The notes under the pieces are model-generated. The model was not told the origin of the DNA, did no database searches, and saw nothing but the letters and a program-made list of their open reading frames with translations. From contig JAPLKU010000022.1 in assembly GCA_026387935.1 (NCBI GenBank), forward strand, positions 520 through 64,519: a stretch of 64,000 nt of DNA. Reading direction: 5' to 3'. This document shows, piece after piece, positions 14,633 through 50,957 of the stretch (its first letter is position 1; each line of letters starts with the position of its first letter). The position numbers and the translations under genes are program-made. This DNA is from Gemmatimonadota bacterium. Lineage in GTDB: Bacteria; Gemmatimonadota; Gemmatimonadetes; Gemmatimonadales; Gemmatimonadaceae.

Positions 14633-14689
14633 CCGTACCCGAGGCTACGGCAGTTCTTCGCGGCCGGAAGTGGTTTCAACATCCATCGT

Positions 14690-14883
14690 GGGGTCTCGGC
14701 GCTAACGCGTCATCGGACAAGCGCCGGATGCAGCAGAGACCAGCCGGATACGGCAACTGACTGGGGGCACTACACCGACGGTGCCATTCCAGGCAGTTCC
14801 CCCAGGTATTTGCCGTGGTCGCACCCACGAAGCATCCGCTCGAGTCCGGCGGTGTTCCGCACCCGCGCTAGCGCCGAGACACC
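14690..14883 (+). repeat. copy A of an inverted-repeat-bounded structured intergenic repeat family (MITE-like or RNA element)
   Basis: The left end GGGGTCTCGGCGCTAACGCG and the right end CGCGCTAGCGCCGAGACACC are near-perfect inverted repeats. There is a central stem CTGGGGG(14761)...CCCCCAG(14805). It shares ordered modules with the copies at 37557 and 45225. Confidence 0.75.
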
Positions 14884-14929
14884 GGTCGATCGCGCAGTGA
14901 CTCGATGCATGACGCGTCGAGCCGGTTTT
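14881..14929 (+). terminator. possible hairpin plus T-run just after repeat copy A
   Basis: ACCGGTCGA...TCGAGCCGGT can form a 9-bp stem with one bulge, followed by TTTTG. The loop is long, so the call is weak. Confidence 0.3.
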
Positions 14930-14950
14930 GAAACCGCTTCTAGAGGCAAC

Positions 14951-16048: not shown

Positions 16049-16974
16049 CAGTACACTCGGTCGATGAGCATGAATACAAAGAAGACGATACTGATCACCC
16101 CATTCATCGTGAAAAACGCCGCATCGAGGCGGGATTGGTCTTCCTCAGTGACGAGCGAATGCTCATAGGCCAGCAACAGGGCTACCACCCCGACACCGAG
16201 CCAGGAGAGTTTTCCCGGATGCGTGATGCCAGCCGCGGCACTCACCACGATGGCCAGCAGGCCGACGGTGACCGCGTGCATCGCGCGCGAAACCCGAAGG
16301 GCGCTCCGCAGCCCGACCGTCGCTGGAAGCGAGTACAGACGGTGTTTTCGGTCAAAGGCGATGTCCTGCAAGGCGTACAGGATGTCGAAGCCAGCGCCCC
16401 AAGTCATCACGGCCGCAACGAGTGCTGGAATCACCCACCAGGGGTCGCTCCAACGTCCGGTCACGGCGAGATAGCCGCCGGCCGGCGCGATGCCCATGCC
16501 GACGCCAAGCACGAGATGCGACCAGCGGGTGAAGCGTTTCGTGTAGCTGTAAATGAAGACCCAGCCGAGTGCGAACGGCGCGAGCGCCAGGCAGAGCGGA
16601 TTAAGCCGCCACGCGGCGACCATGAAAACGGCCGCGGCGACACCAACGGCCACTGACGCCTCGGTGACGCTCAGCTTCCCGCTCGGGAGTTCACGCATCG
16701 CCGTGCGCGGATTCCTGGCATCGATCGCGCGATCCACGATGCGATTGAATCCCATCGCGGCGAATCGTGCCGCGGTGAATGCCAGAACGACCCACGCGAC
16801 GGTCTCCCAGCGGACCGTCGCGACGTAGGACGCGAGCACCACGCCGACGAGCGCGAACGGCAGCGCGAACACCGTGTGCGGAAGCCGCACGAAGTTCGCG
16901 TACACGGCGAGGCGCGAGGCGCCCGCCATCGTCTGGCCTTCACGAGGCGTCAGGGGTTCATTCGCGGCACCCAT
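16048..16974 (-). CDS. UbiA-family aromatic prenyltransferase
   Basis: ATG 16974 lies 4 nt after the UbiD stop; ATG 16929 is an alternative start. It is polytopic and carries the Asp-rich motifs NRIVDRAIDARN and DILYALQDIAFD. Confidence 0.8.
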   Translation of the reverse strand: MGAANEPLTPREGQTMAGASRLAVYANFVRLPHTVFALPFALVGVVLASYVATVRWETVAWVVLAFTAARFAAMGFNRIVDRAIDARNPRTAMRELPSGKLSVTEASVAVGVAAAVFMVAAWRLNPLCLALAPFALGWVFIYSYTKRFTRWSHLVLGVGMGIAPAGGYLAVTGRWSDPWWVIPALVAAVMTWGAGFDILYALQDIAFDRKHRLYSLPATVGLRSALRVSRAMHAVTVGLLAIVVSAAAGITHPGKLSWLGVGVVALLLAYEHSLVTEEDQSRLDAAFFTMNGVISIVFFVFMLIDRVY

Positions 16975-37441: not shown

Positions 37442-37556
37442 TCCTCGAGCAGGCGGTGCGCGCGGCGGCGAATGCGCCCGCGGAGCCGAAGATCAGGGCC
37501 GGATCATCATGAACAGTGCGCCGCCAAGGGTTGCGAGACGACCAATCGGATAGGCA

Positions 37557-37787
37557 GGGGTCTCGGTACTATCGTTGGAAACGGACAACCGCCGGAGGGA
37601 TCGGACAAGGCCCGGATACAACAACGACAACGACAACCACAACGACAACCACAACGACGACTGACCGGGGAACTACCACCACCGCTCGCGCTCGCGAGGT
37701 AGTCGCAGTTCCCCCCAAAGAGCGTCCGTGCCGAAGAGCTCCGATTCGTCCGGTACTTGTCCGCCACCCGCGATAGCGCCGAGACCC
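37557..37787 (+). repeat. copy B of the inverted-repeat-bounded structured repeat family, with an expanded (CAACGA/CAACCA)n tract
   Basis: The left end is GGGGTCTCGGTACTATCG and the right end is CGCGATAGCGCCGAGACCC. The central stem is GGGGAACTACC(37667)...GGTAGTCGCAGTTCCCC(37714). The right end stops 4 nt before the stop codon of the minus-strand gene. Confidence 0.75.
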
Positions 37788-37791
37788 GTCT

Positions 37792-40700
37792 TTACGGCTT
37801 TTTCGGCGGCACCACCGGCTTCGGATCGTGCGCGTCGATCTTCTTCGTGTTCACCTGCAGCGCGTCCTCGTTCACCCAGTACTTCGGGCCAAACGGAACA
37901 GCCCTCGGCCAGATCTGGTCGAGCGACATGCCGTCATAGAGCATTCCGCCCTTCATCACGTACTGCATGTCGATCGTATTACGGATGTTGTCGAGTGGAT
38001 TCTTGTTGAGCACCATCAGATCGGCAAGCTTGCCGACTTCGATCGACCCGAGATCCTTGTCGGCGCCGAGGAAGCGCGCGCCGTGCAGGCTGGCCACTTC
38101 GAGAGCGCCCATGTTGCCCAGCGCGCTTGCGCCCATCCACACTTCCCAGTGCGGCGCGATGCCATGGTGTTCACCATGTGACCCGATGGCGCCCCAGCCG
38201 CCTTCGGCGATGATGTCGGCCATCGCCTGCGCAACAAGCGGATAACTGTAGTCCGTGGCAGGACGTTGCCAGCGCACGCGCGTTTGCGGCACGAGCATGC
38301 GCCACGGAAACCAGAGGCGCTGCTTCGGATCCTTCCACACGTCGCTTTCGCCAAACCAGTACTCGATGCTCCACGCACTCGGCCCCGCGACGACGAGCGT
38401 GGGCGAGTATGTGGCTCCGGCCTTTCCGAGGAACTTGGCGCCGTCGGAGTACATCGGGACTTCGCTGAACGAGTGTTCCCACCCGGTCTGTCCGTCCATG
38501 ATGAATCCGAGGTCCTCCATGAAGTGCCCGCCCTCGGAGGTCTCGTTGATTCCGACGGTGCGCGATGCTTCGGCCATCCACTGCCGCTGATCGCGGCGGG
38601 GCTGGGCGTATTGCTTGATGGACACGGCTCCCCAATCGGCCATCTTGCGGACGGCGGCGAGTGCGTCGGCCGGATTGTTCATCTCGTTCGCGCGTGCGGC
38701 GTCGCCGGCGGTGATATTGTCGCCCGTGCTGAATCCGCGCGGCCCGATCATCTCGCCAGCCTCGATGAGCTCGGCAGTCGGGAACATGTTCTGTGAGTAC
38801 ATCGACACGTCGGTCGTCGTGGTCACGCCGTAGGCCAGGTAGATGGCCTGCTCGTAGTCGTGCGTGGGGCGCATGCCTCGCCACTCGCGGTAATGGTGCG
38901 CGTGCATGTCCACGAAGCCCGGGATGATTGTCTTGCCGCTTGCATTCACTACCCTGCCGACGCCAGCCGTCGGGCAGTTGCCGACGCAGGTGATGCGCCC
39001 GTCCTTGACCACGACCGTCCCGCGCTCGATGACCTGGCGCTTATTGAGCGTCACGATGCGCGCGTTCGTCAGGGCGATGGAGCCGCTGGCGACGGAGCCG
39101 CGTGGTACCGACACGGCGAGCTTCACCGTATCCGTCTTGCCGTTTTCCATGTGATGCACGAAGAACCGCTCGCCGCTGCCGTACTCAAGTGTGTTCTTGT
39201 CGCGCCAGCGCGGAAACAGTCCGCCGTCACGCGTCAGCTGGGTGACCGGAAACTGGCCGCGTCGCTTCTCGATTCTTTGTACTTCGCCGCCGAGTCCGCC
39301 GTATGCCATGGGCGCGACGTACACGTTGTCGCCTTCCTGGAAGGCGACGAATTCGCCGGTGGGCGAGGGGACAATTTCGTCAGCCGCCGGGAAGGAGAGG
39401 TCTTCCTGCTTGTCGCTCCCGTCCAGCTTCGACGACATGAGGGCCGTACCGCCACCACGCCCACCAGCGCCCGCCTTTTCATCAATCCAGAACACCCGAC
39501 CATCGGGACCGAACGAGGGACGCACCAGCTGGCGGCGCGCTTCGTTGCCCACCGAGGCGCCGGACGGGCGCAGCACCTTCGAGAAGGCGATGCCGGTGTC
39601 ACCGGCGGTGCCGGCATTCGCATTGAGCGATACCAGGTCGTACCAGGAGTTGTGCGTCAGCGTGCGCTGGCGTGCCGTAGCACCTTCGCCGCGCGCGACG
39701 ACGATGAGCCGGCCATCGGGACTCCAGACCGGATCCACATAGTCACCGGATTCACTCGTCACGCGCTGCGGAGTGCCGCCAGTGGCCGCCACTGTCCAGA
39801 CGTGACCGCGCGCCGTGTCCTCCCAGGTCACGAAGGCGATGGAGCGGCCATCGGGGCTCCATGTGGGCGCGTACTCCAGTGGTTGGAAGGCAGCGTCTGT
39901 GAGGCGCTTTGGCGTGCCCGTGGCGCCCGGTTGCGTGTAAATGCGACCGACGGACTGGAACGCGATCGTCTTTCCATCTGGCGACGCGCTCGGCCAGCGG
40001 AAGAACTTCGCGGCCACGGGTCCATCGGCGATCCGGAATTCCTTGCGCGCCATTTCTGAAATGGTGCGGTGCACCGTCGCGGTGTACGGAACGGTGGTGA
40101 CGGCCTTCGTTGCGATATCGAGACGACGGATCTTCCCACCCTGCGCGATGACGAGACTCTTCCCGTCCTTCGACCATTTGTAGCGCGCCAACACGCCGAG
40201 CGTCTTGGAACCCGAGGTGACCATCGGATCGATCGGATCCATGACCATGCGTTCCGCGCCGGTCTTCATGTCGCGCAACCAGAGTGCACTGCGCGGCCCG
40301 TACTTGTGGCCCTTGTACTCGAGCAGTCCGTCCGGAATCTGGCGGCCAAAAGCGAGCCATCGCCCGTCCGGCGAAATCTCCGGTACCGCGCCACCACCAG
40401 AGGAGAAGCGTCCCGCAGCCGCGCCAACGCTTTCGCCATTGGTAATGTCGACCGTTTCGCCGTTCTTCATTTCAAACCGCCGGAGCTGAATGGAGCCGCT
40501 GAGCATCTCCTTCGTGTCCGTGGTCATCGTGACCTGGTAGTACAGGTACTTCCCGTCACTCGACACGCTCGGCCACGACGGCGCGCCGTTGCCGCCCGCG
40601 CCGCGACCACCGCCAGCACCGACGAGGGACACTCCCTGGCCACCGTCCTTGTGATACATCCACAGCCCGCCGCCGGCTCCAGCGCCGCCGTCACCGCCGC

Positions 40701-41202
40701 CGCGACCGCCTTTGCGCACGATGATGTAGTTGCCGTCAGGCGTCCACGCCGGTTCGACTGCCGTGGCGTTGAGGTCGCTGAACACCGCGTGCGGATTCGA
40801 GCCGTCGGCGTTCATGACCCAGAGGTTGTACTGACCACGGCGGTCCGTGATGAACGTGATCAGCTTGCCGTCGGGCGAGATACGCGGCTGGAAGTTCAGC
40901 GCTACGCCGCTGTTTTGCGTGAGCACCGTGGCAGCGCCGCCCGTCGCGGGCACCCGATAGATGTGCCCGAGCAGATCAAATGCGACCCAGCTGCCGTCAG
41001 GGGAGATGTCGACCGATGTCCAGGTTCCTTCGGACGTCGTGAAGTCGATGTCGCGTGTCTTGCCGCGTGCGAGCGTGACGTCCCAGGCGGCGCGCCCACC
41101 TCCGCCACCTTGGGCATCGGTGGCGCCGCCCCGCTGCGCGAAGAGGGGCAGCGCAGAGACGAGCATTGCGACGACGACTGCGGATCGGGTTCGGATAGAC
41201 AT
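37792..41202 (-). CDS. secreted TolB-like beta-propeller / amidohydrolase fusion protein
   Basis: The start is ATG 41202, with signal peptide ...LPLFA|QRGG. It has repeated PD40-type blades (SPDG...) and a C-terminal amidohydrolase metal motif IPGFVDMHAHH. Confidence 0.8.
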   Translation of the reverse strand: MSIRTRSAVVVAMLVSALPLFAQRGGATDAQGGGGGRAAWDVTLARGKTRDIDFTTSEGTWTSVDISPDGSWVAFDLLGHIYRVPATGGAATVLTQNSGVALNFQPRISPDGKLITFITDRRGQYNLWVMNADGSNPHAVFSDLNATAVEPAWTPDGNYIIVRKGGRGGGDGGAGAGGGLWMYHKDGGQGVSLVGAGGGRGAGGNGAPSWPSVSSDGKYLYYQVTMTTDTKEMLSGSIQLRRFEMKNGETVDITNGESVGAAAGRFSSGGGAVPEISPDGRWLAFGRQIPDGLLEYKGHKYGPRSALWLRDMKTGAERMVMDPIDPMVTSGSKTLGVLARYKWSKDGKSLVIAQGGKIRRLDIATKAVTTVPYTATVHRTISEMARKEFRIADGPVAAKFFRWPSASPDGKTIAFQSVGRIYTQPGATGTPKRLTDAAFQPLEYAPTWSPDGRSIAFVTWEDTARGHVWTVAATGGTPQRVTSESGDYVDPVWSPDGRLIVVARGEGATARQRTLTHNSWYDLVSLNANAGTAGDTGIAFSKVLRPSGASVGNEARRQLVRPSFGPDGRVFWIDEKAGAGGRGGGTALMSSKLDGSDKQEDLSFPAADEIVPSPTGEFVAFQEGDNVYVAPMAYGGLGGEVQRIEKRRGQFPVTQLTRDGGLFPRWRDKNTLEYGSGERFFVHHMENGKTDTVKLAVSVPRGSVASGSIALTNARIVTLNKRQVIERGTVVVKDGRITCVGNCPTAGVGRVVNASGKTIIPGFVDMHAHHYREWRGMRPTHDYEQAIYLAYGVTTTTDVSMYSQNMFPTAELIEAGEMIGPRGFSTGDNITAGDAARANEMNNPADALAAVRKMADWGAVSIKQYAQPRRDQRQWMAEASRTVGINETSEGGHFMEDLGFIMDGQTGWEHSFSEVPMYSDGAKFLGKAGATYSPTLVVAGPSAWSIEYWFGESDVWKDPKQRLWFPWRMLVPQTRVRWQRPATDYSYPLVAQAMADIIAEGGWGAIGSHGEHHGIAPHWEVWMGASALGNMGALEVASLHGARFLGADKDLGSIEVGKLADLMVLNKNPLDNIRNTIDMQYVMKGGMLYDGMSLDQIWPRAVPFGPKYWVNEDALQVNTKKIDAHDPKPVVPPKKP

Positions 41203-41283
41203 GGCCACGGTCTCGGGTGGGGAGTTTCGTCCCAAAAGGTGCAGCGAAGCCGACGTTCGCGCGAGTATTATTCGCTCCCGCCC

Positions 41284-42450: not shown

Positions 42451-42579
42451 CAGCAGGTAGCTGGCGGTAGGAAGATGGCGCGCCGCGGCGAACCGCTCGC
42501 TCGCGCAGCGCGGTAGCTGGTGGCATCTTCTGGCGTTGACCGTACACGCCCTACACGCCGTCCTCATCAGGAGATTCGC

Positions 42580-45210
42580 ATGATCCCCACCCTTCGCCGT
42601 CTGGCCGCGCTGGCCGCGCTGGCCTCGATCGGCATCGCCGCATCCGCCGTATCCGCCGCCGCCCAGCAGCCGCGCGAAGCAGTCGTTCGCGCCAACTGGG
42701 AGCTCGCCAACAAGTTCGGTACGCAGGCGCTGCAACGGATCAATTACTCCACCGCCCTTCAGGCCCGCTGGATCGGCAAGACCGATTCGATGTGGTACAA
42801 CTGGAAGGACCACAACGGAAACGGATTTCTCCTCATCGTTCCGGCGCTCAAGACCAAGAAGCCGCTCTTCGATCACGCGAAGCTCGCGGCGCAGCTCGCC
42901 ACGCTGCACAAGAAACCATATGACGCAAACTCGCTTCCCTTCACCACGATCACGTGGGTGAAGGACCACAAGCGATTCCGCTTCAACACCGACACCGGCA
43001 CCATGGCGTCACGCTACGAGTGGAACATGGCGACCGAAACGCTGACCACACTCGGCCGACCTATTCGCGCTGATTCAATCGTTCCCGATGAAGAGCGCGA
43101 GGAAGGTAGCGGCGGCCGCGGCGGACAGGGCGGCGGCGGTGGTCGTGGAGGCGGCGGCCCGGATTTCCGGAACTGGTCCCCTGACAGCACCATGTTCGTC
43201 TTTGCGCGCGCACACAATCTCTATTTCGTCGAAAAGGGAAAGACCGACACGACGAAGATTTCGACCGACGGCGAGAAGAATCACTCTTTCGGATTCCGCG
43301 ACACGACCGAAGTGCAGGACAGCACCCAGCAGGACAATCAGGGCGGCGGCGGGCGCGGCGGTGCTGCCAATCGAGACCCGCGTGTGCGCGCCAATGTTAC
43401 GTGGTCGCCGGATTCGAAAGCCTTCGTGATTCCGCGCCAGGATCAGCGAAAGGTCAAGGAACTCTACCTCGTCAATTCACTGGCCGATCCGCGCCCCACG
43501 CTGAGTGCGTACTCGTACGCGATGCCTGGTGAGGACAATGTCGGGCTGTCCGAGCTCTACGTCTGGAAGAAGGGGACCCCGACAGTGGCGCCGGTCAACA
43601 TCAAGAAGTGGCGTGATGAGCGGATCATGAACATCCATTGGACCGTCGGGTCGGACAAGATCCGGCTCGTGCGGCGTGACCGGCCGCAGCGGCATCTCGA
43701 ACTGATCGAGTTGACGCTCTCGACCGGCGCCGTCAAGACGTTGATCACCGACGCGGTCGAGAACGCGAATCTCGAGACGCCACAGGTGCGCTATGTGAGG
43801 ACGGGTGGCGACATCATCTGGTGGTCGGAAAAGACCGGCTGGGGTCACTATTATCTGTACGACTTCAACGGCGCATACAAGAAACCGCTCACCGAAGGTC
43901 CGTGGCGCGCCGACCAGATCACGGACATCGATACGATCGCGGGCGTCGTGTTCGTTTCAGGCGTGGGACGTGAAGCGGGCGAGAATGTCTACTACCGGCA
44001 CACCTATCGCGTGAACGGCGACGGGACCGGGTTCGCACTACTCGATCCGGGCAACTCGAATCACACGACGACGCTGAGTCCGAGCAAGAAGTTTGTCGTC
44101 GACAACTCGTCGCGCATTGAATTCGCCCCGAAGGCGGTACTGCGCGACGTGACGGGCAAGGCCGTGATGGATCTCGAGGAAGCCGATCTCTCCGGCATCA
44201 AGGCCGCCGGGTGGAAGCCGCCCGAGCAGTTCATCGTGAAGGCCGCCGACGGCGTGACGGACATCTACGGTAACCTGTGGAAGCCCTTCGATTTCGATTC
44301 CACAAAGAAGTACCCGATTATCGCGCACGTGTACCCGGGCCCGCAGACGGAAGGCGTCAACATTCCGTTCGCCGCCGGTGGCGTGCCGCAGCAGCTCGCG
44401 CAGCTCGGGTTCATCGTCATACAGCTCGGCAATCGCGGCGGCAATCCGCTCCGGTCCAACGCGTACCAGAGCTTCAGCTATTACAACATGCGCGACTATG
44501 CGCTGGCCGATAAGAAGGCCGGTATCGAGCAGCTCGCATCACTGCACAAGTGGATCGACATCGACCGCGTGGGCATCTTCGGCCACTCGGGCGGTGGATT
44601 CCTGACCGCCGCGGCGATGATGACGCCGCCGTACAACGACTTCTTCAAGGTCGGCGTGTCGAGCTCGGGGAATCACGACAACAACATCTATAACCAGAAC
44701 TGGAGCGAGCAGTACCACGGCCTGAAGACCGTCGTGGCAACTGCCACCACAGCTGCGGCGGCGGGCGGTGCGGCCGGCCGTGGTGGGCGGGCGGGTGGCG
44801 CGAACGGTGGGGCAAACGGCGGGGCAAACGGCGGCACTGGTGGGCCTGGCGCAGTGAGCGGGTCGCCCGGCCGCATCGCGGGCCCGTCATCGCCGGCAGA
44901 CACCGGCTACGCGGACGATTCGCTGCGCTACCAGATTCGCGTGCCGACCAACATCGAGCTGGCGCCGAACCTGAAGGGCCGGCTCCTGCTCGCGACGGGC
45001 GACATGGACAACAACGTCCACCCCGGCAACACGATCCGGATGGCGAACGCGCTGATCAAAGCGAACAAGCGCTTCGACTTCATCCTGTTACCCGGCCAGC
45101 CGCACGGCTACGGGCCCATGCAGAACTACTTCAACCGGCAACTCATGGAGTACTTCGCAGAGCATCTGCTGGGCGATTACTACCGAGCGGGTGCGGAGAT
45201 CAAGCCGTAG
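42580..45210 (+). CDS. secreted dipeptidyl-peptidase IV-like S9 serine peptidase
   Basis: ATG 42580 is preceded by AGGAG. It has signal peptide ...SAAA|QQ, an N-terminal propeller, the catalytic nucleophile motif GHSGGGF, and three Gly/Arg-rich insertions. Confidence 0.85.
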   Translation: MIPTLRRLAALAALASIGIAASAVSAAAQQPREAVVRANWELANKFGTQALQRINYSTALQARWIGKTDSMWYNWKDHNGNGFLLIVPALKTKKPLFDHAKLAAQLATLHKKPYDANSLPFTTITWVKDHKRFRFNTDTGTMASRYEWNMATETLTTLGRPIRADSIVPDEEREEGSGGRGGQGGGGGRGGGGPDFRNWSPDSTMFVFARAHNLYFVEKGKTDTTKISTDGEKNHSFGFRDTTEVQDSTQQDNQGGGGRGGAANRDPRVRANVTWSPDSKAFVIPRQDQRKVKELYLVNSLADPRPTLSAYSYAMPGEDNVGLSELYVWKKGTPTVAPVNIKKWRDERIMNIHWTVGSDKIRLVRRDRPQRHLELIELTLSTGAVKTLITDAVENANLETPQVRYVRTGGDIIWWSEKTGWGHYYLYDFNGAYKKPLTEGPWRADQITDIDTIAGVVFVSGVGREAGENVYYRHTYRVNGDGTGFALLDPGNSNHTTTLSPSKKFVVDNSSRIEFAPKAVLRDVTGKAVMDLEEADLSGIKAAGWKPPEQFIVKAADGVTDIYGNLWKPFDFDSTKKYPIIAHVYPGPQTEGVNIPFAAGGVPQQLAQLGFIVIQLGNRGGNPLRSNAYQSFSYYNMRDYALADKKAGIEQLASLHKWIDIDRVGIFGHSGGGFLTAAAMMTPPYNDFFKVGVSSSGNHDNNIYNQNWSEQYHGLKTVVATATTAAAAGGAAGRGGRAGGANGGANGGANGGTGGPGAVSGSPGRIAGPSSPADTGYADDSLRYQIRVPTNIELAPNLKGRLLLATGDMDNNVHPGNTIRMANALIKANKRFDFILLPGQPHGYGPMQNYFNRQLMEYFAEHLLGDYYRAGAEIKP

Positions 45211-45224
45211 TGATCGACAAGCAT

Positions 45225-45418
45225 CACCGACTTTGGACGCGGATCAAACGGATGTGAACGACGATTAGGCGGATACGGCAACGACAACTGCAACAATAGG
45301 GGGAACTGCAACCACATCGGGCGTGGTCGCAGTTCCCCCAATCAGTTGAGGCCGCCGGCCCTGAACAATCCGGACAAGTCCGGCCGTTGTCCGATTCCCG
45401 CGCTAGCGCCGAGACCCC
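45225..45418 (+). repeat. copy C of the structured repeat family (left arm degenerate)
   Basis: It shares GGATACGGCAACGACAAC and the central hairpin GGGGGAACTGCAACCAC(45299)-7 nt-GTGGTCGCAGTTCCCCC(45339). The right end CGCGCTAGCGCCGAGACCCC stops 5 nt before the minus-strand stop codon. Confidence 0.7.
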
Positions 45419-45423
45419 TGCTC

Positions 45424-48400
45424 CTACATCGCGATCTTCGCGTCGGTGATCGGCTTCAGCTTCCCTGCCCACTGCTTGTTGAAGTCGGCAATCGTCTTGG
45501 TCATCAGCTCGGCGAACTTCGCTTTCGCGGTCTTGAGATCCTGCTCTATGTCGCCGAGCACCTGCACAGCCGCGTCGGTCGGCCGGTGGTCGGCGCCGCC
45601 GGCCACGTCACCTGCGCCGGTGCCGACGTCGCCGTTCAACCAAATGAGCTTCATGAAGATCTTCATCGTCTCGACGTAGTACTTATCGTCGCTCATGAGG
45701 TCGGAGTTCGTCAACATGAGCAGTTCCACGTCCTTGATCTTGCCATCAAGCGTCAGCAGCGCGGCCTTCGCATCGGGCTTGGTCGTATCCGCCTTCGCGA
45801 TGTCCTGCACCTGGCGCCGCATTACCTCGATGCGGTTGATCATCTGGACCGTTGCGTTCATGTCGTCACGCACTTTCGTCTGCGCCTTGGTCGAGGCGAC
45901 GATGTCAGCCACTGGCTGCTTGACATCCTTATCAAGGAGCACGGCGAACGGGCGAGTCTGCGACTTGCCGGCAACGGTCACGCGCACGCTGTACTTGCCG
46001 GGAGCCGCGAGTGGACCGTTCCGTTGCGGACCATCGATGCCCCAGTGGATGATGGGCCGAGTGTCCTTGCCCGCAAACCGGGGATCCTCCCAGATGTGCG
46101 GCTGCTCCGGTGGCGTGTGCCGCATTTCCACCTGCATCGGCGGCTCGTAGCGCAGGTTCCACGCGACCTTGTTCAGCCCCGGACGCCCGCGGCCGTTCAT
46201 CGTGCGGATCACTACGCCCGCCGAGTCGAGTACCTCCAGCTTGATCAATCCGTCGGTCACAGCCTTCAGGTCGAACTGGAAGTCCGCTCGACCGCTTCGG
46301 GCCTCACGGTAACCGGTGCGCGGCGCGAAGAGGTGGAAGTCAGCCGCCGCCGCGGCCTTGTCCTTTTCTTCGAGCGGTGCAATGTCGCGCAGGATGAAGA
46401 CGCCGCGTCCGTACGTCGACACGACCACATCATGCCACTCCTTCGGCGTCTCGATCCAGCTCACGGGGGCAGGCGGAAGCCCCGTCTTGAAGTGCGTCCA
46501 GTTCGCGCCGTCGTTCATCGAGTAGTAGAACGCGTGCGCCGTGCCGGCGAAGAGCATTCCCTTCCGGTTCGGGTTTTCACCCACCGACATCACGTAGTCG
46601 AGCGGATGTCCGTTCGGCAGATCACCCGTGACCTCCTTCCACGTCTTGCCGAAGTCTGTTGTCTTGTAAATGTGCGGCGATCGATCGTCGACCATGTGGT
46701 AGTCGGCCGTGAAATACGCCGTGCCCGCGTCGTGCCACGACGGCGTGATCTGCCGGATCGTGCCCAGCGGCTTCATTCCGACGTTCTTGGTGACGTCGTT
46801 CCACGTCGTGCCGCCATCGCGTGTGTTCCACACCTTGCCGTCGTTCGTGCCGGCCCAGATCAGCCCCTTCCGGATCTGGCTCGGCGCAATAGAGAACACC
46901 AGCGCGCCGTAGAACTGGCCAAGATTGTCGCCAACCACGCCGCCCGAGTTGACGATCATCGACTTGTCGCGTGTCGAGAGGTCGGGACTGGTCACCTTCC
47001 ACGTCTGCCCGCCATTGGACGTCTTGAAGATCACCTGACAGCCGTAGTAAACCGTGTTGTGGTCGAAGGGATCAATCGCAAGCGGCGGCGTCCAGTGGCA
47101 CCGGTACTTGATATCGTCGGGCGGCGAGTCAAGCGTGATGCCAAAGGGGGCCACCGAGCGTGCCAGCCCCGCCTTGTTGTCGAACCGCGTCACCTTGTTG
47201 CCGTAGCAGCTGGCCCAGATGATGTCGGCGTCGGTCGGGTCCGCGAGCGTGAAGCCCGACTCGCAGCCGCCGATTCCATGCTGCCAGGTGCCGACGCTCG
47301 CGTACGCGGCGTTGCCCGAACCGCCTGCACCACCACCGCGACCGCCGCGCCCACCCACGCCTCCCTGAGGCGGAATCGGCCCGAAGTCGATTGTCGTCGA
47401 GTCGACGGGCGCACGCGCGGCCGTCGAGTCGGCGACGCCGCTCGCGCCGCTCCCACTGCGGCCACCGCGGCCACCAAGACCGCCCGCTGCCGCAGAATCC
47501 GGAACGGGCGGGCCGAAGCCGCCACGCCCGCGTCCACCGCCGCCCGGAGGCGCCTCGACCACGTTGCTCGGTCCGCGAATCGTGCCATTGTCCTGGCGAT
47601 TCGTCAGCACCCAGTACGGAACCTGCTTGTCGGTCGAGACGTGATACATCTGGCCGTTGGGCAGCGTGACCGTGCCCGACTGTGCACCGTGCGTAGATGT
47701 GACCCGCGCGCCGGCATCGTTCGTGAGACCGAAGTGGTCGGCGTTAACTGGATCCCACCAGATGTCGTGATTGTCGCCGCCCCACGGCCGCTCGACGAAG
47801 GTCTTGGCTCCGTCGGTGGACTGGAAGAACGTCGAGCTCGCCAGAAGAATCTCATCGGGGTTCGACGGAGAGACCTCGAGGCGCGTGTAGTAGCCCGCGC
47901 GCCCGATCAGCGGTCGCTGCCAGTTCCACACCTTCCACGTGACTCCAGCGTCGTCTGAGCGCCAGACGGATCCCTGATCGGCGGTCTGCATCAGCGCGTA
48001 CACCCGCTTGCCATTGCTCGGCGCAACGGCCACGTCCACCTTGCCGACACCCGCCTTGGGCAGGCCATTCGCGAGGCGGGTCCAGGTTTCGCCCGCGTCG
48101 TTCGTCTTCCAGACGCCGCTGCCCGGGCCGCCGCTGTACATCGCCCACGTGGCCATCTTCACTTCCCACGTGCCGGCATAGAGGACGCGCGGATCCTGCT
48201 TGTCCATCGAGAGGCCCGAGCAACCTGTTTTGTCGTCGACAAAGAGCACGCGGCGCCAGCTGTTGCCGCCGTCGCCGGTACGGAACACTCCGCGCTCCTG
48301 CTGCGGCCCCGTTACACGACCGATTGCGCAGACATACACGATGTCGGGGTTGGTCGGATGGATGATGACCTTCCCGATCCGGCCGACTTCCCTGAGGCCC

Positions 48401-48837
48401 ATGTTCTTCCAGGTTGTTCCGGCATCGGCCGACTTGTAGACGCCGTCGCCGGCGATGTCCGCGTCGCGAATCACCCACGCCTCGCCGGTCCCGGCCCAGA
48501 CGATGTCGTGGTTCGATTGCGAGACGGCGAGCGCACCGATCGCCTGCACACCGGTCTCGTCAAAAATCGGCACGTTGGTCGTACCGTTGTTGGTCGACTT
48601 GAAGATGCCGCCCGAGGCGCTGCCGAAATACCAGGTATTGTTGTCACCAGGCACGCCGGCGATGGCGGAGACTCGGCCGCCGTCGGTCGGCCCAATGAAC
48701 TGGAACCAGAGCGAGTCGGCGCGAACGGGCGCGGTGGGCGCCGCGGTGGGCTGTTGGGCGGAGAGAGGCACGCCCGAGGCTGCGCCGACAGAAGCGAGCA
48801 GAGCGACGGATGCGATTAGGCGGGGGCGGAGCGACAT
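45424..48837 (-). CDS. secreted BNR/Asp-box repeat protein (sortilin/VPS10- or GH74-like double propeller)
   Basis: The start is ATG 48837, with signal peptide ...VPLSA|QQ. It has many S-x-D-x-G-x-T-W boxes (SADAGTTW, TGDGGNSW, TNDAGETW, SDDAGVTW, STDGAKTF, SNGGQTW, TRDGGTTW, TTDFGKTW, MNDGANW). Confidence 0.8.
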   Translation of the reverse strand: MSLRPRLIASVALLASVGAASGVPLSAQQPTAAPTAPVRADSLWFQFIGPTDGGRVSAIAGVPGDNNTWYFGSASGGIFKSTNNGTTNVPIFDETGVQAIGALAVSQSNHDIVWAGTGEAWVIRDADIAGDGVYKSADAGTTWKNMGLREVGRIGKVIIHPTNPDIVYVCAIGRVTGPQQERGVFRTGDGGNSWRRVLFVDDKTGCSGLSMDKQDPRVLYAGTWEVKMATWAMYSGGPGSGVWKTNDAGETWTRLANGLPKAGVGKVDVAVAPSNGKRVYALMQTADQGSVWRSDDAGVTWKVWNWQRPLIGRAGYYTRLEVSPSNPDEILLASSTFFQSTDGAKTFVERPWGGDNHDIWWDPVNADHFGLTNDAGARVTSTHGAQSGTVTLPNGQMYHVSTDKQVPYWVLTNRQDNGTIRGPSNVVEAPPGGGGRGRGGFGPPVPDSAAAGGLGGRGGRSGSGASGVADSTAARAPVDSTTIDFGPIPPQGGVGGRGGRGGGAGGSGNAAYASVGTWQHGIGGCESGFTLADPTDADIIWASCYGNKVTRFDNKAGLARSVAPFGITLDSPPDDIKYRCHWTPPLAIDPFDHNTVYYGCQVIFKTSNGGQTWKVTSPDLSTRDKSMIVNSGGVVGDNLGQFYGALVFSIAPSQIRKGLIWAGTNDGKVWNTRDGGTTWNDVTKNVGMKPLGTIRQITPSWHDAGTAYFTADYHMVDDRSPHIYKTTDFGKTWKEVTGDLPNGHPLDYVMSVGENPNRKGMLFAGTAHAFYYSMNDGANWTHFKTGLPPAPVSWIETPKEWHDVVVSTYGRGVFILRDIAPLEEKDKAAAAADFHLFAPRTGYREARSGRADFQFDLKAVTDGLIKLEVLDSAGVVIRTMNGRGRPGLNKVAWNLRYEPPMQVEMRHTPPEQPHIWEDPRFAGKDTRPIIHWGIDGPQRNGPLAAPGKYSVRVTVAGKSQTRPFAVLLDKDVKQPVADIVASTKAQTKVRDDMNATVQMINRIEVMRRQVQDIAKADTTKPDAKAALLTLDGKIKDVELLMLTNSDLMSDDKYYVETMKIFMKLIWLNGDVGTGAGDVAGGADHRPTDAAVQVLGDIEQDLKTAKAKFAELMTKTIADFNKQWAGKLKPITDAKIAM

Positions 48838-48896
48838 GCGTGTGTGATCCTCAGGGTCATGGTCAAACAGACCTCGGAAGATACGGAACCGCCTTG

Positions 48897-50957
48897 CTAC
48901 ACCGCTAACCGCCCGGCGACTACCTCGGCAATGTCCAGCACGGTAACATCGGCATCGCGCGCCTTCACGCTGTCGGCCAGCATCGTCATGCAGAAGGGGC
49001 ACGCCACAGCGATCGTCGTCGCACCGGTCGCGAGCGCCTCCTCGGCACGCTCCGCGTTGATTCGCTTGCCGCCTTCAGCCACATGTTCTTCCATGAACAT
49101 CCGGCCGCCGCCAGCACCACAGCACATGCCGCGATCGCGCGAGCGCGGCATTTCCACGAGTTCCATGACGGGCAATGCGCGCTTGAGGGCTTCGCGCGGC
49201 GCGTCGTACACCTCGTTGTAGCGACCGAGGTAGCAGGAGTCGTGGTAGGTGAACTTGCTCACCGGTTCGTGGAGATCAGCGCGGAGCGGCACCTTCCCTG
49301 CCGCGAGCAACTCTTCGATGAACGTCGAATGGTGGATGACGTCGAAGTGCCCACCCCACTGAGGGAACTCGTTGCCCATCTGGTGGAAGCAGTGCGGGCA
49401 GGCGGTCACCACCTTCGTCACCGCGTAGGTATTGAGGACACCAACGGCGTCCTTCGCGAGCATCTGGTAGAGGTACTCGTTGCCCATGCGTCGCGCGGGA
49501 TCGCCGTGGCACTTTTCTTCCTGCGCCAGAATCGCGAACCGCACGCCGGCAGCCTTCATGATCTTCGCAAACGCGACGGTAGTCTTCTTCGCGCGATCGT
49601 CAAACGAGCCCATGCAGCCAACCCAATAGAGCACGTCGGGCTTCTCGCCGCGGCCATGCAGTTCAGCCATCGTCGGGATGTCCATGCCGTCGGCCCACTT
49701 CGCGCGGTCGGCCGGGTCGAACGCCCAGGGCGAACCCTTCTGCTCCATGGACTCGAACGCCGGCAGGATCTCTTCCGGGAAGCGCGATTCCCCGAGGACG
49801 AGGTTGCGGCGCAGTTCGTTGATCACGGAGAGCTGATCAATGGAGACTGGGCATTCGGTCACGCAGGCGCGGCACGAAGTGCAGGCCCAGAGTTCGTCTT
49901 CGGTGATGTAGGTATCGAGCAGCGCGCGCGCGGTGGTTGCTCCGGCGGTTGTGACGGCGGTGCCGCCGGCACTCCGCCCAATCAGTCCGATCCCAGCGGC
50001 CGCCGATTTCTCTTCCAACCGCTCGCGGACGTTCACCATGATCTTGCGCGGGCTCAGCGGTTTGCCCGTGATGTTCGCCGGACACACGCTCGTGCAGCGG
50101 CCGCATTCCGTGCAGGCGAATCCATCGAGCAAGGATTTCCAACTCAGCTGCTCAACGTCCTTTGCGCCGAAGACTTCGAGGTCGCCTTCGAGGTCCATCG
50201 CCGACATGACGCCAACCTGCCCAGGCCCACTCGTGTTCGAGAGGTACACGTTCGGCAGCGACACCACGACGTGCAGGTGCTTCGAATACGGCAGATAGTT
50301 CAGGAAACTGAGCACCAGCAATCCGTGCGACACCCAGAACAGGCGCTCAAGTGTGAGTGCAGCACTTGGCGAGACGACCACCGATGACAACGCGGCAATC
50401 ACCGCCGAGATCGGCCGGAGCAAGCCAATACCGGGTTCCGGATTGGCGACCATCGCCATCGCCTGATCGCCGAACATCGTGATCATCAGCGCGCCGATCC
50501 ACGACAGAATCAACAACGGGTCATTCGGATGCGTCTCGGCGCCCATCAACCGCTTCACCCGCTTGGTGATGCGGCGGAAAAGCGCAAACGACACCGCGAG
50601 CAGCACCAGCGCGCCCCAGACGTCCTGATTGATCGTGTAGAAGCGGTACAGCACGCCCGGCAGGACCTTCGCGAAACTGAACGACGGGAACACACCGGCG
50701 ACAAGAAACTCGATCGTGCCGGCGGTCAGCACGCAGAAGCCCCAGAAAATCGCCGCGTGCATCGGGCCCGCAACCGAATCGCGGAAGATCTTCTTCTGGA
50801 AGATTCCGATCGAGAGCAGGTTGCCCAACCGTGCGCCGACATCGCTCCAACGGGAGTCGTCGAGTCGGCCCATGCGCAGTTCAAGGATGAGTCGCCACGC
50901 GTTCCAGGCAAACAAGCCGAACGCGGCGACTACGACGAGCGCAAAGACGATGTGCAC
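48897..50957 (-). CDS. membrane-anchored Fe-S oxidoreductase (heterodisulfide-reductase-like CCG domains; EtfD-like)
   Basis: It has N-terminal TM helices, two 4Fe-4S ferredoxin motifs ([24 protein letters not shown]), and C-terminal cysteine-rich CCG-type motifs (..CCGAGGG..). It lies directly downstream of etfBA. Confidence 0.75.

Follow-up and report, generated by a model that had tools for sequence, protein, structure and literature searches.

A dispersed family of non-coding palindromic repeats in the intergenic regions of Gemmatimonadaceae

The region at positions 14690-14883 of the analysed DNA (a stretch of 64,000 nucleotides, called the window in the following) holds a repeat copy which we refer to as copy A. 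It is best explained as one copy of a lineage-restricted palindromic DNA repeat family of Gemmatimonadaceae, which is non-coding, non-autonomous and mosaic, and whose arms would be the substrate of an enzyme acting in trans. We assign this explanation a probability of about 0.6. Most likely the family is a selfish element of the REP/BIME or MITE kind and not a structured RNA gene, and the most defensible wording is that of a dispersed repeat which is selfish or semi-domesticated. A MITE-like mobile element and a terminator or 3'-end stabiliser of the REP/BIME/ERIC type were among the roles suggested in a preliminary description of the window, and a dispersed element of the MITE or REP/BIME type is the best reading of a unit that occupies many unrelated sites and whose full form is missing from orthologous sites.

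Results

Extent and structure of copy A

The preliminary description recognised an element at 14690-14883 with near-perfect 20-nt inverted repeats as ends, a second complementary tier inside them and a central hairpin. We recovered all three: the terminal 20-mers match as inverted repeats at 18/20 positions, the arms reach a length of 39 nt with 77% complementarity in the repeat finder, and a G5/C5-clamped hairpin lies in the centre (Table 1). Allowing up to three mismatches, the terminal 20-mer occurs five times in the window, compared with 0.08 expected occurrences. The 194 nt of the inner element fold with -100.9 kcal/mol on the + strand and -110.8 kcal/mol on the - strand (z = -6.1 and -5.7, respectively), which is equalled by 0/200 shuffled sequences.

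The bounds given before are those of a real inner element, but not of the full unit. Because related copies elsewhere have an outer inverted repeat in common with copy A, we define the copy A unit as ~14667-14940, a composite of ~275 bp, which is directly followed by TAG at 14941-14943. Outer arms are present on the A-type copies of several metagenome loci (L158, L180, L157/L171, L153 and L142), and the composite aligns to L180 (5085-5397) with ~75% identity over ~314 bp. On the right side, copy A and its nearest relatives possess a 40-nt extra segment which holds a small hairpin. The neighbouring genes of copy A, a UvrC-like GIY-YIG gene and a Metallophos_2 gene, are convergent and separated by a spacer of 318 bp, and the A region is 99-100% identical across strain-level copies. 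The proteins encoded around the repeats are of types usual in Gemmatimonadaceae, and exact protein matches locate the region on contigs of lake-water metagenomes and on two NCBI MAGs.

Just left of the outer repeat, at 14633-14660, there is another small hairpin, CCGTA-CCCGAGGC-TACGG. Analogous C-rich/G-rich mini-hairpins are found at the equivalent place in the left flanks of L158 and L180, so this may be yet another mosaic module.

Table 1. Positions of the three repeat copies and their modules in the window
Feature	Position	Strand	Remarks
Copy A, full composite unit	14667..14940	.	Bounded by the outer inverted repeat GAAGTGGTTTCAA / TTGAAACCGCTTC
Copy A, outer repeat, left	14667-14679		GAAGTGGTTTCAA
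Copy A, inner element	14690..14883	.	Two arms and core
Copy A, left terminal inverted repeat	14690..14709	+	GGGGTCTCGGCGCTAACGCG; contains GCGCTA-CGC, near palindrome GCGCTAGCGC
Copy A, left arm interior	14710..14757	+	CGGA boxes ~10 bp apart: CGGAC 14714, CCGGA 14724, CCGGATACGGCAAC 14744
Copy A, central G5/C5-clamped hairpin	14761..14805	.	CTGGGGG...CCCCCAG
Copy A, TCCG boxes of the right arm	14832-14863		Mirror the CGGA boxes
Copy A, right terminal inverted repeat	14864..14883	-	CGCGCTAGCGCCGAGACACC
Copy A, small extra hairpin	~14901-14920		CTCGA..TCGAG
Copy A, outer repeat, right	14928-14940		TTGAAACCGCTTC
Copy B	37557..37788	.	Left terminal repeat degenerate, GGGGTCTCGGTACTATCGTT
Copy B, hexamer microsatellite	37621..37658	+	(ACAACG/ACAACC) x 6.3; length differs between strains
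Copy B, central hairpin	37667..37716	.	GGGGAAC...GCAGTTCCCCCC
Copy C	45225..45418	.	Left-truncated, without left terminal repeat
Copy C, central hairpin	45299..45339	.	GGGGGAACTGC...GCAGTTCCCCC; on the - strand followed by TATTGTTGCA, terminator-like scan passed

Copies B and C

Profiles built from the three window copies, and later from 21 copies, detected exactly these three copies in the 64-kb window and no fourth one. The modules of copy A recur at the two further places named in the preliminary description, 37557..37787 and 45225..45418, except that copy B ends at 37788 and that copy C has lost its left terminal repeat. The three copies had also been described as lying in the same orientation. 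All of them score best on the + strand, and for the asymmetric core this orientation holds; the arms themselves are nearly symmetric, and the scores of family members on the two strands are almost equal.

Copy B lies between convergent methyltransferase and PD40/amidohydrolase genes, with its right end 3 nt from the stop codon of the latter (37792-41235, - strand). Its alignment to L146, a strain which is 97-99% identical, contains 18 gap columns, corresponding to three hexamer units, and the length of the hexamer array also differs between L136 and L146. Compared with L146 (671-1164), the window has a deletion of ~494 bp at ~37490 which removes the larger part of a small ORF located between copy B and the methyltransferase gene, leaving 37442-37556 as its remnant.

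Copy C lies between convergent genes for a DPP-IV/S9 peptidase and a sortilin/BNR protein. Its homology begins ~14 nt past the DPP-IV stop codon, and its right end is 5 nt from the stop codon of the sortilin/BNR gene (45424-49002, - strand). In a 97% identical strain (L135, 5420-5594) the DPP-IV/S9 peptidase gene beside copy C (42512-45145 in the window) is almost wholly absent and only short remnants are kept, a 2.6-kb presence/absence polymorphism ending ~80 nt from copy C.

Census and architecture of the family

A metagenome scan with a specific arm pattern based on the terminal inverted repeats yielded 59 contigs, in which the family profile gave 66 non-overlapping hits, corresponding to ~45 distinct loci. 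Second or third copies were found on contigs that had been ascertained for one copy only (L180, L138, L147 and L168). The density of such bystander copies is ~1 per 30-45 kb and that of the window 1 per 21 kb; a density of ~1 per 20-45 kb extrapolates to ~100-200 copies per genome. That the three window copies belong to a multi-copy family is supported by ~45 further loci from a single scan. The copies come from freshwater and soil Gemmatimonadaceae, range from roughly 100 to 290 bp in size, and all of those seen are intergenic. In agreement with the preliminary description, the element has no coding capacity.

We aligned 72 non-redundant arms and 21 full-length copies. The family unit consists of two arms of ~55 bp in inverted orientation around a variable core. 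Each arm carries the terminal repeat GGGGTCTCGGCGCTAnCGCG, which is nearly invariant among the 72 arms, followed by three CGGA boxes spaced ~10 bp apart, about one helical turn. On one side, a CCGGATACGGCAAC box follows and then the (CAACNN)n hexamer array, which together with the G5/C5-clamped hairpin makes up the core. The consensus of this central hairpin is GGGGGAACTGCAAC...GTTGCAGTTCCCCC, and on both strands it is followed by tails of the AAGTATTTGC or AAGTCGTTG type. Some copies, A included, have the further outer inverted repeat GAAGTGGTTTCAAAACC. The arms are the most conserved part, above the core, and the termini are more conserved than any loop, with the limitation that ascertainment by an arm pattern inflates the apparent arm conservation in the metagenome sample. 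Outside the elements, there is no excess of the 8-mer GTCTCGGC. The hexamer array is slippage-prone and a genuine microsatellite: strains with 97-99% identity elsewhere (L135, L136 and L146) differ in it by whole units.

Besides full-length copies, there are arm-only minis of 105-128 bp without a core (L173, L147, L168, L134, L138 and L139) and tandem arrays (L154, and L004 in a Gemmatimonadota MAG). In five loci (L132, L145, L165, L184 and L128) both ends carry 3-6 iterations of the terminal 11-mer, with periods of 16-28 bp. An extreme copy is L165 (3559-4148), with 5.4 units of the terminal 28-mer GGGTCTCGGCGCGGATGCCGTGAGGGAA at its left end and a hexamer array of ~54 units of CAACAG/CAACAA (~300 bp). 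The array of L004 (500-1100, Gemmatimonadota MAG147) consists of three tandem units of ~159 bp, each bounded by GTCTCGGCGG...CGCGATAGCGCCGAGAC and with nested inverted repeats inside; it belongs to the family as a more remote member. Copies from different loci mostly show identities of just 55-87% to each other, so that nothing points to a very recent burst.

As in the preliminary description, in which no described family was recognised, we found no described relative of the element in Rfam or by BLAST against plasmids and phages, and a scan of viral contigs with the inner and outer repeats gave chance matches only. Full-text literature searches returned no description of an interspersed repeat family of this kind in Gemmatimonadota.

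The matches listed in a genome-contig scan with CGCGNTAGCGCCGAGAC contained no Gemmatimonadaceae family member. They consisted of chance coding hits and of a repeat in Mesorhizobium, present at L003, L007, L015, L020-L024 and at least about 50 further loci among those listed, which is unrelated and carries the exact 17-mer CGCGATAGCGCCGAGAC of the Gemmatimonadaceae terminal repeat. The Mesorhizobium repeat is palindromic, ~180 bp long and built as CCTTCTCCCCTTGTGGGAGAAGG ... GGATCGGCGCGATAGCGCCGAGACGGATGAGGGGTG ... CACCCCTCATCC ... CCTTCTCCCACAAGGGGAGAAGG, and in it the 17-mer belongs to a hairpin on one side (TCGGCGC-GATA-GCGCCGA) and is not a terminal repeat. The presence of the same 17-mer in both repeats is probably a coincidence plus ascertainment.

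Sequence conservation and base pairing

A structured small RNA had been among the roles considered for the element. We projected the fold of one typical copy onto the alignment of 21 copies and shuffled the pairing partners among copies (n = 500). Standard pairs make up 82.0% of the cells compared with 81.3 +/- 0.5% after shuffling, a value reached by 63/500 shuffles, and the covariation score is 0.088 compared with 0.083 (116/500). Ten pairs of the outer stem never vary, and the variable stem columns are mismatched in 7-11 of the 21 copies. Since the covariation is like that of the shuffles, the pairing reflects two arms which each keep a conserved palindromic consensus, and not compensatory change. 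The arms are therefore conserved as sequence and not as base pairs, and the structured small RNA fails a refuting condition that the preliminary description had set.

The folds of 22 copies range from -86 to -134 kcal/mol and are mostly one long hairpin, in which the GGA boxes of one arm pair with the other arm; the fold energies show no consistent strand preference. No Rfam family matches at the gathering threshold, and at E <= 10 there are two chance-level matches only. A scan for sigma-70-like promoters in or beside the copies found none. The covariation, strand, Rfam and promoter results argue against a structured RNA gene and favour conservation of the arms for recognition by a protein.

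Gene context and orthologous sites

The preliminary description placed each copy between the 3' ends of convergent genes. This is correct for all three window copies, but the family is found in tandem and divergent regions as well. The copy in L158 is 92% identical to copy A over the inner element and has the outer module in common with it, and neither L158 nor L180 carries any gene that flanks copy A. Instead, the L158 copy is flanked by the divergent starts of genes for an AlaX-like protein and an S9 peptidase, and one of the L180 copies (L180a) by tandem genes for an ABC ATPase and a Cys/Met PLP enzyme. As the neighbours of these copies differ, the A-type composite is found in convergent as well as divergent and tandem contexts. 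When all loci were roughly tallied, with ORF calls based on GC3, there were ~16 convergent, ~12 tandem and 2 divergent sites, and the element ends are often 3-7 nt from stop codons. Such a placement is the pattern expected under selection against promoter disruption.

To obtain syntenic relatives, we used homologues of the flanking proteins. At the A site, the spacer of 318 bp in the window corresponds to 30 bp in L187 (86% protein identity) and 75 bp in L189 (88%). The B site is a 20-bp spacer in L193 (75% protein identity). The C site of L193 is 80 bp long and has an arm-less core hairpin only, with a CCGGATACGG box and in the opposite orientation, and the C site of L192 (80% identity) has an unrelated long hairpin. 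Altogether, the 71.6 kb of the relatives gave two weak partial hits to the family profile, compared with three copies in the window. The full element is thus missing at the A, B and C sites of relatives with 75-88% protein identity, which means that the window copies are lineage-specific gains or, less likely, that there were repeated losses elsewhere. The preliminary description had proposed to look for empty sites; the spacers of the relatives are not alignable with the window, so that they show no clean insertion junctions and the element boundaries cannot be read from them.

Several other features were observed at these sites. In L125 (10502-12363, 76% identity) the place of copy A is taken by two genes, for a Ser/Thr kinase and a TPR protein, and in another intergenic spacer of this locus (16695-16761) there is a solitary arm-like fragment, CGATAGCGCCGAGACGCC. 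The long hairpin of L192 (13391-13490) is perfect, follows the sortilin-like gene and reads AGCAAGAAACAAGA-AGGGCGGGCCGA...TCGGCCCGCCC-TCTTGTTTCTTGCT. It may mark another palindromic repeat family, and its CAAGAAC motif recalls the L004 units.

Orthologous copies have 9 substitutions in 601 positions and the flanking genes 115 in 7005, which are similar rates with too few substitutions to show constraint or neutrality.

Ends, target sites and candidate enzymes

Target-site duplications were another proposed check, and the flanks of 35 end pairs showed no direct repeat at the inner ends. The outer ends of the A-type copies read CTA|...|TAG at 8/14 ends, which fits a TA duplication in a CTAG target, the habit of IS630, and a repeat that includes CTAG equally well. 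We considered that the terminal repeats are the halves of a split palindromic CTAG target and found no support for this: the loci examined contain neither an intact GTCTCGGCGCTAGCGCCGAGAC palindrome (up to four mismatches) nor a closely spaced end pair, in scans that are not suited to ascertain such sites.

In ~390 kb of contigs there is no transposase, RAYT or other recurrent enzyme gene near the copies. None of the 59 metagenome contigs contains an ORF enclosed by a pair of terminal repeats, and no autonomous IS with the same terminal repeats was found in these contigs, the window or the viral contigs. Searching ~0.7 Mb of Gemmatimonadaceae loci with the E. coli RayT protein by tblastn gave nothing below E = 0.3, although a single-copy gene would rarely be included in such a sample. 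The recurrent neighbour genes belong only to the large paralogous families of the phylum, namely MacB/FtsX, ABC ATPases, S9 peptidases and PD40 amidohydrolases. Because no enzyme gene lies beside the copies and no pair of terminal repeats encloses an ORF, the mobilising activity is one that we infer entirely.

Comparison with known repeat systems

The family works most like the REP/BIME/REPIN elements and the Correia-type MITEs, but fails defining features of each. With the RAYT-associated REP/BIME/REPIN elements of Proteobacteria it has in common that it is short, non-coding, extragenic and multi-copy, that two inverted conserved units surround a variable spacer and form a long hairpin, that mosaic combinations and tandem clusters occur, that the inner ends show no target-site duplication, and that the copies are enriched at gene 3' ends. 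At these ends, REP/BIME/REPIN elements can act as barriers at the mRNA 3' end. A REP unit is an imperfect palindrome of 20-40 nt, with a stem-loop of its own and a conserved 5' GT(A/G)G head. In contrast, the 72 arms of the family start with GGGGTCTCGGCGC and have neither a conserved intra-arm hairpin nor a GTAG/GTGG head. The family further differs in its longer unit (~200-290 bp), its hexamer microsatellite, its phased CGGA boxes, its host phylum Gemmatimonadota and in that no RAYT gene was found in the ~0.7 Mb searched.

Bacterial MITEs, above all the Correia elements (CREE/NEMIS) of Neisseria and MITEs of the IS630 type, resemble the family in their terminal inverted repeats of ~20 bp, their size of 100-300 bp with full-length and internally deleted classes, their intergenic position without a cognate transposase nearby and their possible effect on transcription ends. 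Like MITEs, the family is small, flanked by terminal inverted repeats, free of ORFs and present or absent at orthologous sites, and its outer repeat may resemble the Correia terminal repeat. The outer ends of the A-type module are what an IS630-type TA duplication in CTAG would give, where CTAG could equally be part of the repeat. Unlike MITEs, the family shows no target-site duplication at its inner ends, and no autonomous IS with the same ends was found.

Further candidates were rejected. Tn3-derived TIMEs have a 38-bp inverted repeat of the Tn3 type and a 5-bp target duplication. The family is similar to them in arms of ~38-39 bp starting with GGGG and in its non-autonomous size, but the 5-bp flanks differ (ATCGT and GGTCG for A, AGGCA and TCTTT for B) and there is no conserved inner end of the TAAG type. 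The attC sites of integrons are imperfect palindromes that end in the R''/R' core sites RYYYAAC / GTTRRRY; here the ends read GCTAnCG / CGnTAGC, with CTAG or ATAG in most copies, and no integrase is encoded nearby. None of the Rfam families matches. A CsrA or Hfq sponge, suggested by the CGGAUG and CAACNN motifs, was dismissed as the main reading, as the fold pairs the GGA boxes and shows no strand bias, and neither covariation nor a promoter is seen.

Discussion

Under the preferred explanation, the arms would be recognition sites for a DNA enzyme that is encoded elsewhere in the genome and acts in trans, perhaps a transposase, or a domesticated one as in the REP/RAYT systems, which copies or moves the unit. 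Through selection, the remaining copies would mainly be those immediately 3' of stop codons. A transcript reading through into a copy could then fold into a hairpin of about -100 kcal/mol directly after the stop codon, and between convergent genes the element would probably be a 3'-end barrier or insulator incidentally. Judged from its sequence, such a by-product role as terminator, 3'-end hairpin or bidirectional barrier is plausible. In a more specific version, Gemmatimonadaceae would possess a domesticated DNA enzyme, encoded by an unrecognised single-copy gene, that has the arms as its substrate. Repeat and enzyme would form a partnership like that of REPIN and RAYT with a different protein and DNA architecture, without self-folding REP units and without target-site duplication, dispersing a bidirectional hairpin/terminator cassette with a hexamer microsatellite to gene ends. 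We consider this version distinctly doubtful.

A rival reading, in which the host selects a bidirectional terminator or 3'-end stabiliser for convergent gene pairs that need insulation, appears unlikely. The core hairpin with its T-enriched tails would be the functional part here and the arms would merely lengthen the stem. It would account for the position of 3/3 window copies between convergent genes, 3-57 nt from stop codons, and for the T content of the 12 nt past the core hairpin, with tails such as AAGTATTTGC and AAGTCGTTG, of ~31% on both strands compared with a background of 17.6%. Measured against an intrinsic terminator, a G+C-rich hairpin with a U-tract, the core of C passes the terminator-like scan on the - strand, while A and B fail it and the T-enriched tails are not true U-tracts. 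Some hairpin seems to be retained at the C junction, since the relatives have either the arm-less core hairpin or an unrelated long hairpin there, whereas the B site of a relative manages with its 20-bp spacer. It is the arms and not the core that are most conserved, the minis possess arms without a core, ~12 copies are found in tandem contexts and the well-annotated L158 copy is located between divergent gene starts; the iterated termini and tandem arrays are left unexplained by a terminator.

A cluster of sites for a host DNA-binding protein, nucleoid-associated or topology-related, that was spread by recombination instead of transposition would fit the three CGGA boxes per arm with their ~10-bp phasing, the symmetric iteration of the terminal 11-mer (3-6 times) at the two ends of some copies, and the conservation of sequence rather than pairing. 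IHF and gyrase are known to bind BIMEs. A composite that is 92% identical at unrelated loci is more easily obtained by copying of a unit, so we hold this to be very unlikely as an account of its own; it is compatible with the preferred explanation and the two do not exclude each other. We give still less credence to a structured small RNA or cis-regulatory RNA gene, for instance a protein sponge acting through CGGA/GGAUG or CAAC repeats. The very stable folding (z ~ -6), the repeated GGA-containing boxes (CGGAUG) and the single-stranded CAACNN repeats would be in its favour, but the covariation does not exceed what column conservation gives, neither strand folds consistently better, and there is no promoter-like site and no Rfam match even at E <= 10 beyond chance level. 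Furthermore, the copies lie in either orientation relative to their neighbour genes, the fold pairs the GGA boxes of one arm with the opposite arm, conservation is higher in the termini than in any loop, and sister species lack the full element at all three orthologous sites.

We therefore retain a dispersed palindromic DNA repeat as the preferred explanation. It is a new family of a familiar kind, as interspersed palindromic intergenic repeats are an expected genomic feature and not a surprise; unusual in detail are the CGGA boxes with their phasing, the hexamer microsatellite inside the unit and the iteration of the termini. Apparently it is the first interspersed repeat family described for Gemmatimonadota, as the full-text searches found none earlier. 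The family accounts for oversized convergent intergenic regions in Gemmatimonadaceae genomes and is a marker for annotators and for those who assemble MAGs; since many contigs end inside copies, it probably breaks assemblies. The polymorphic hexamer array offers loci for strain typing. If the cognate enzyme is found, the family would be an independent example of a repeat with a domesticated transposase outside the Proteobacteria.
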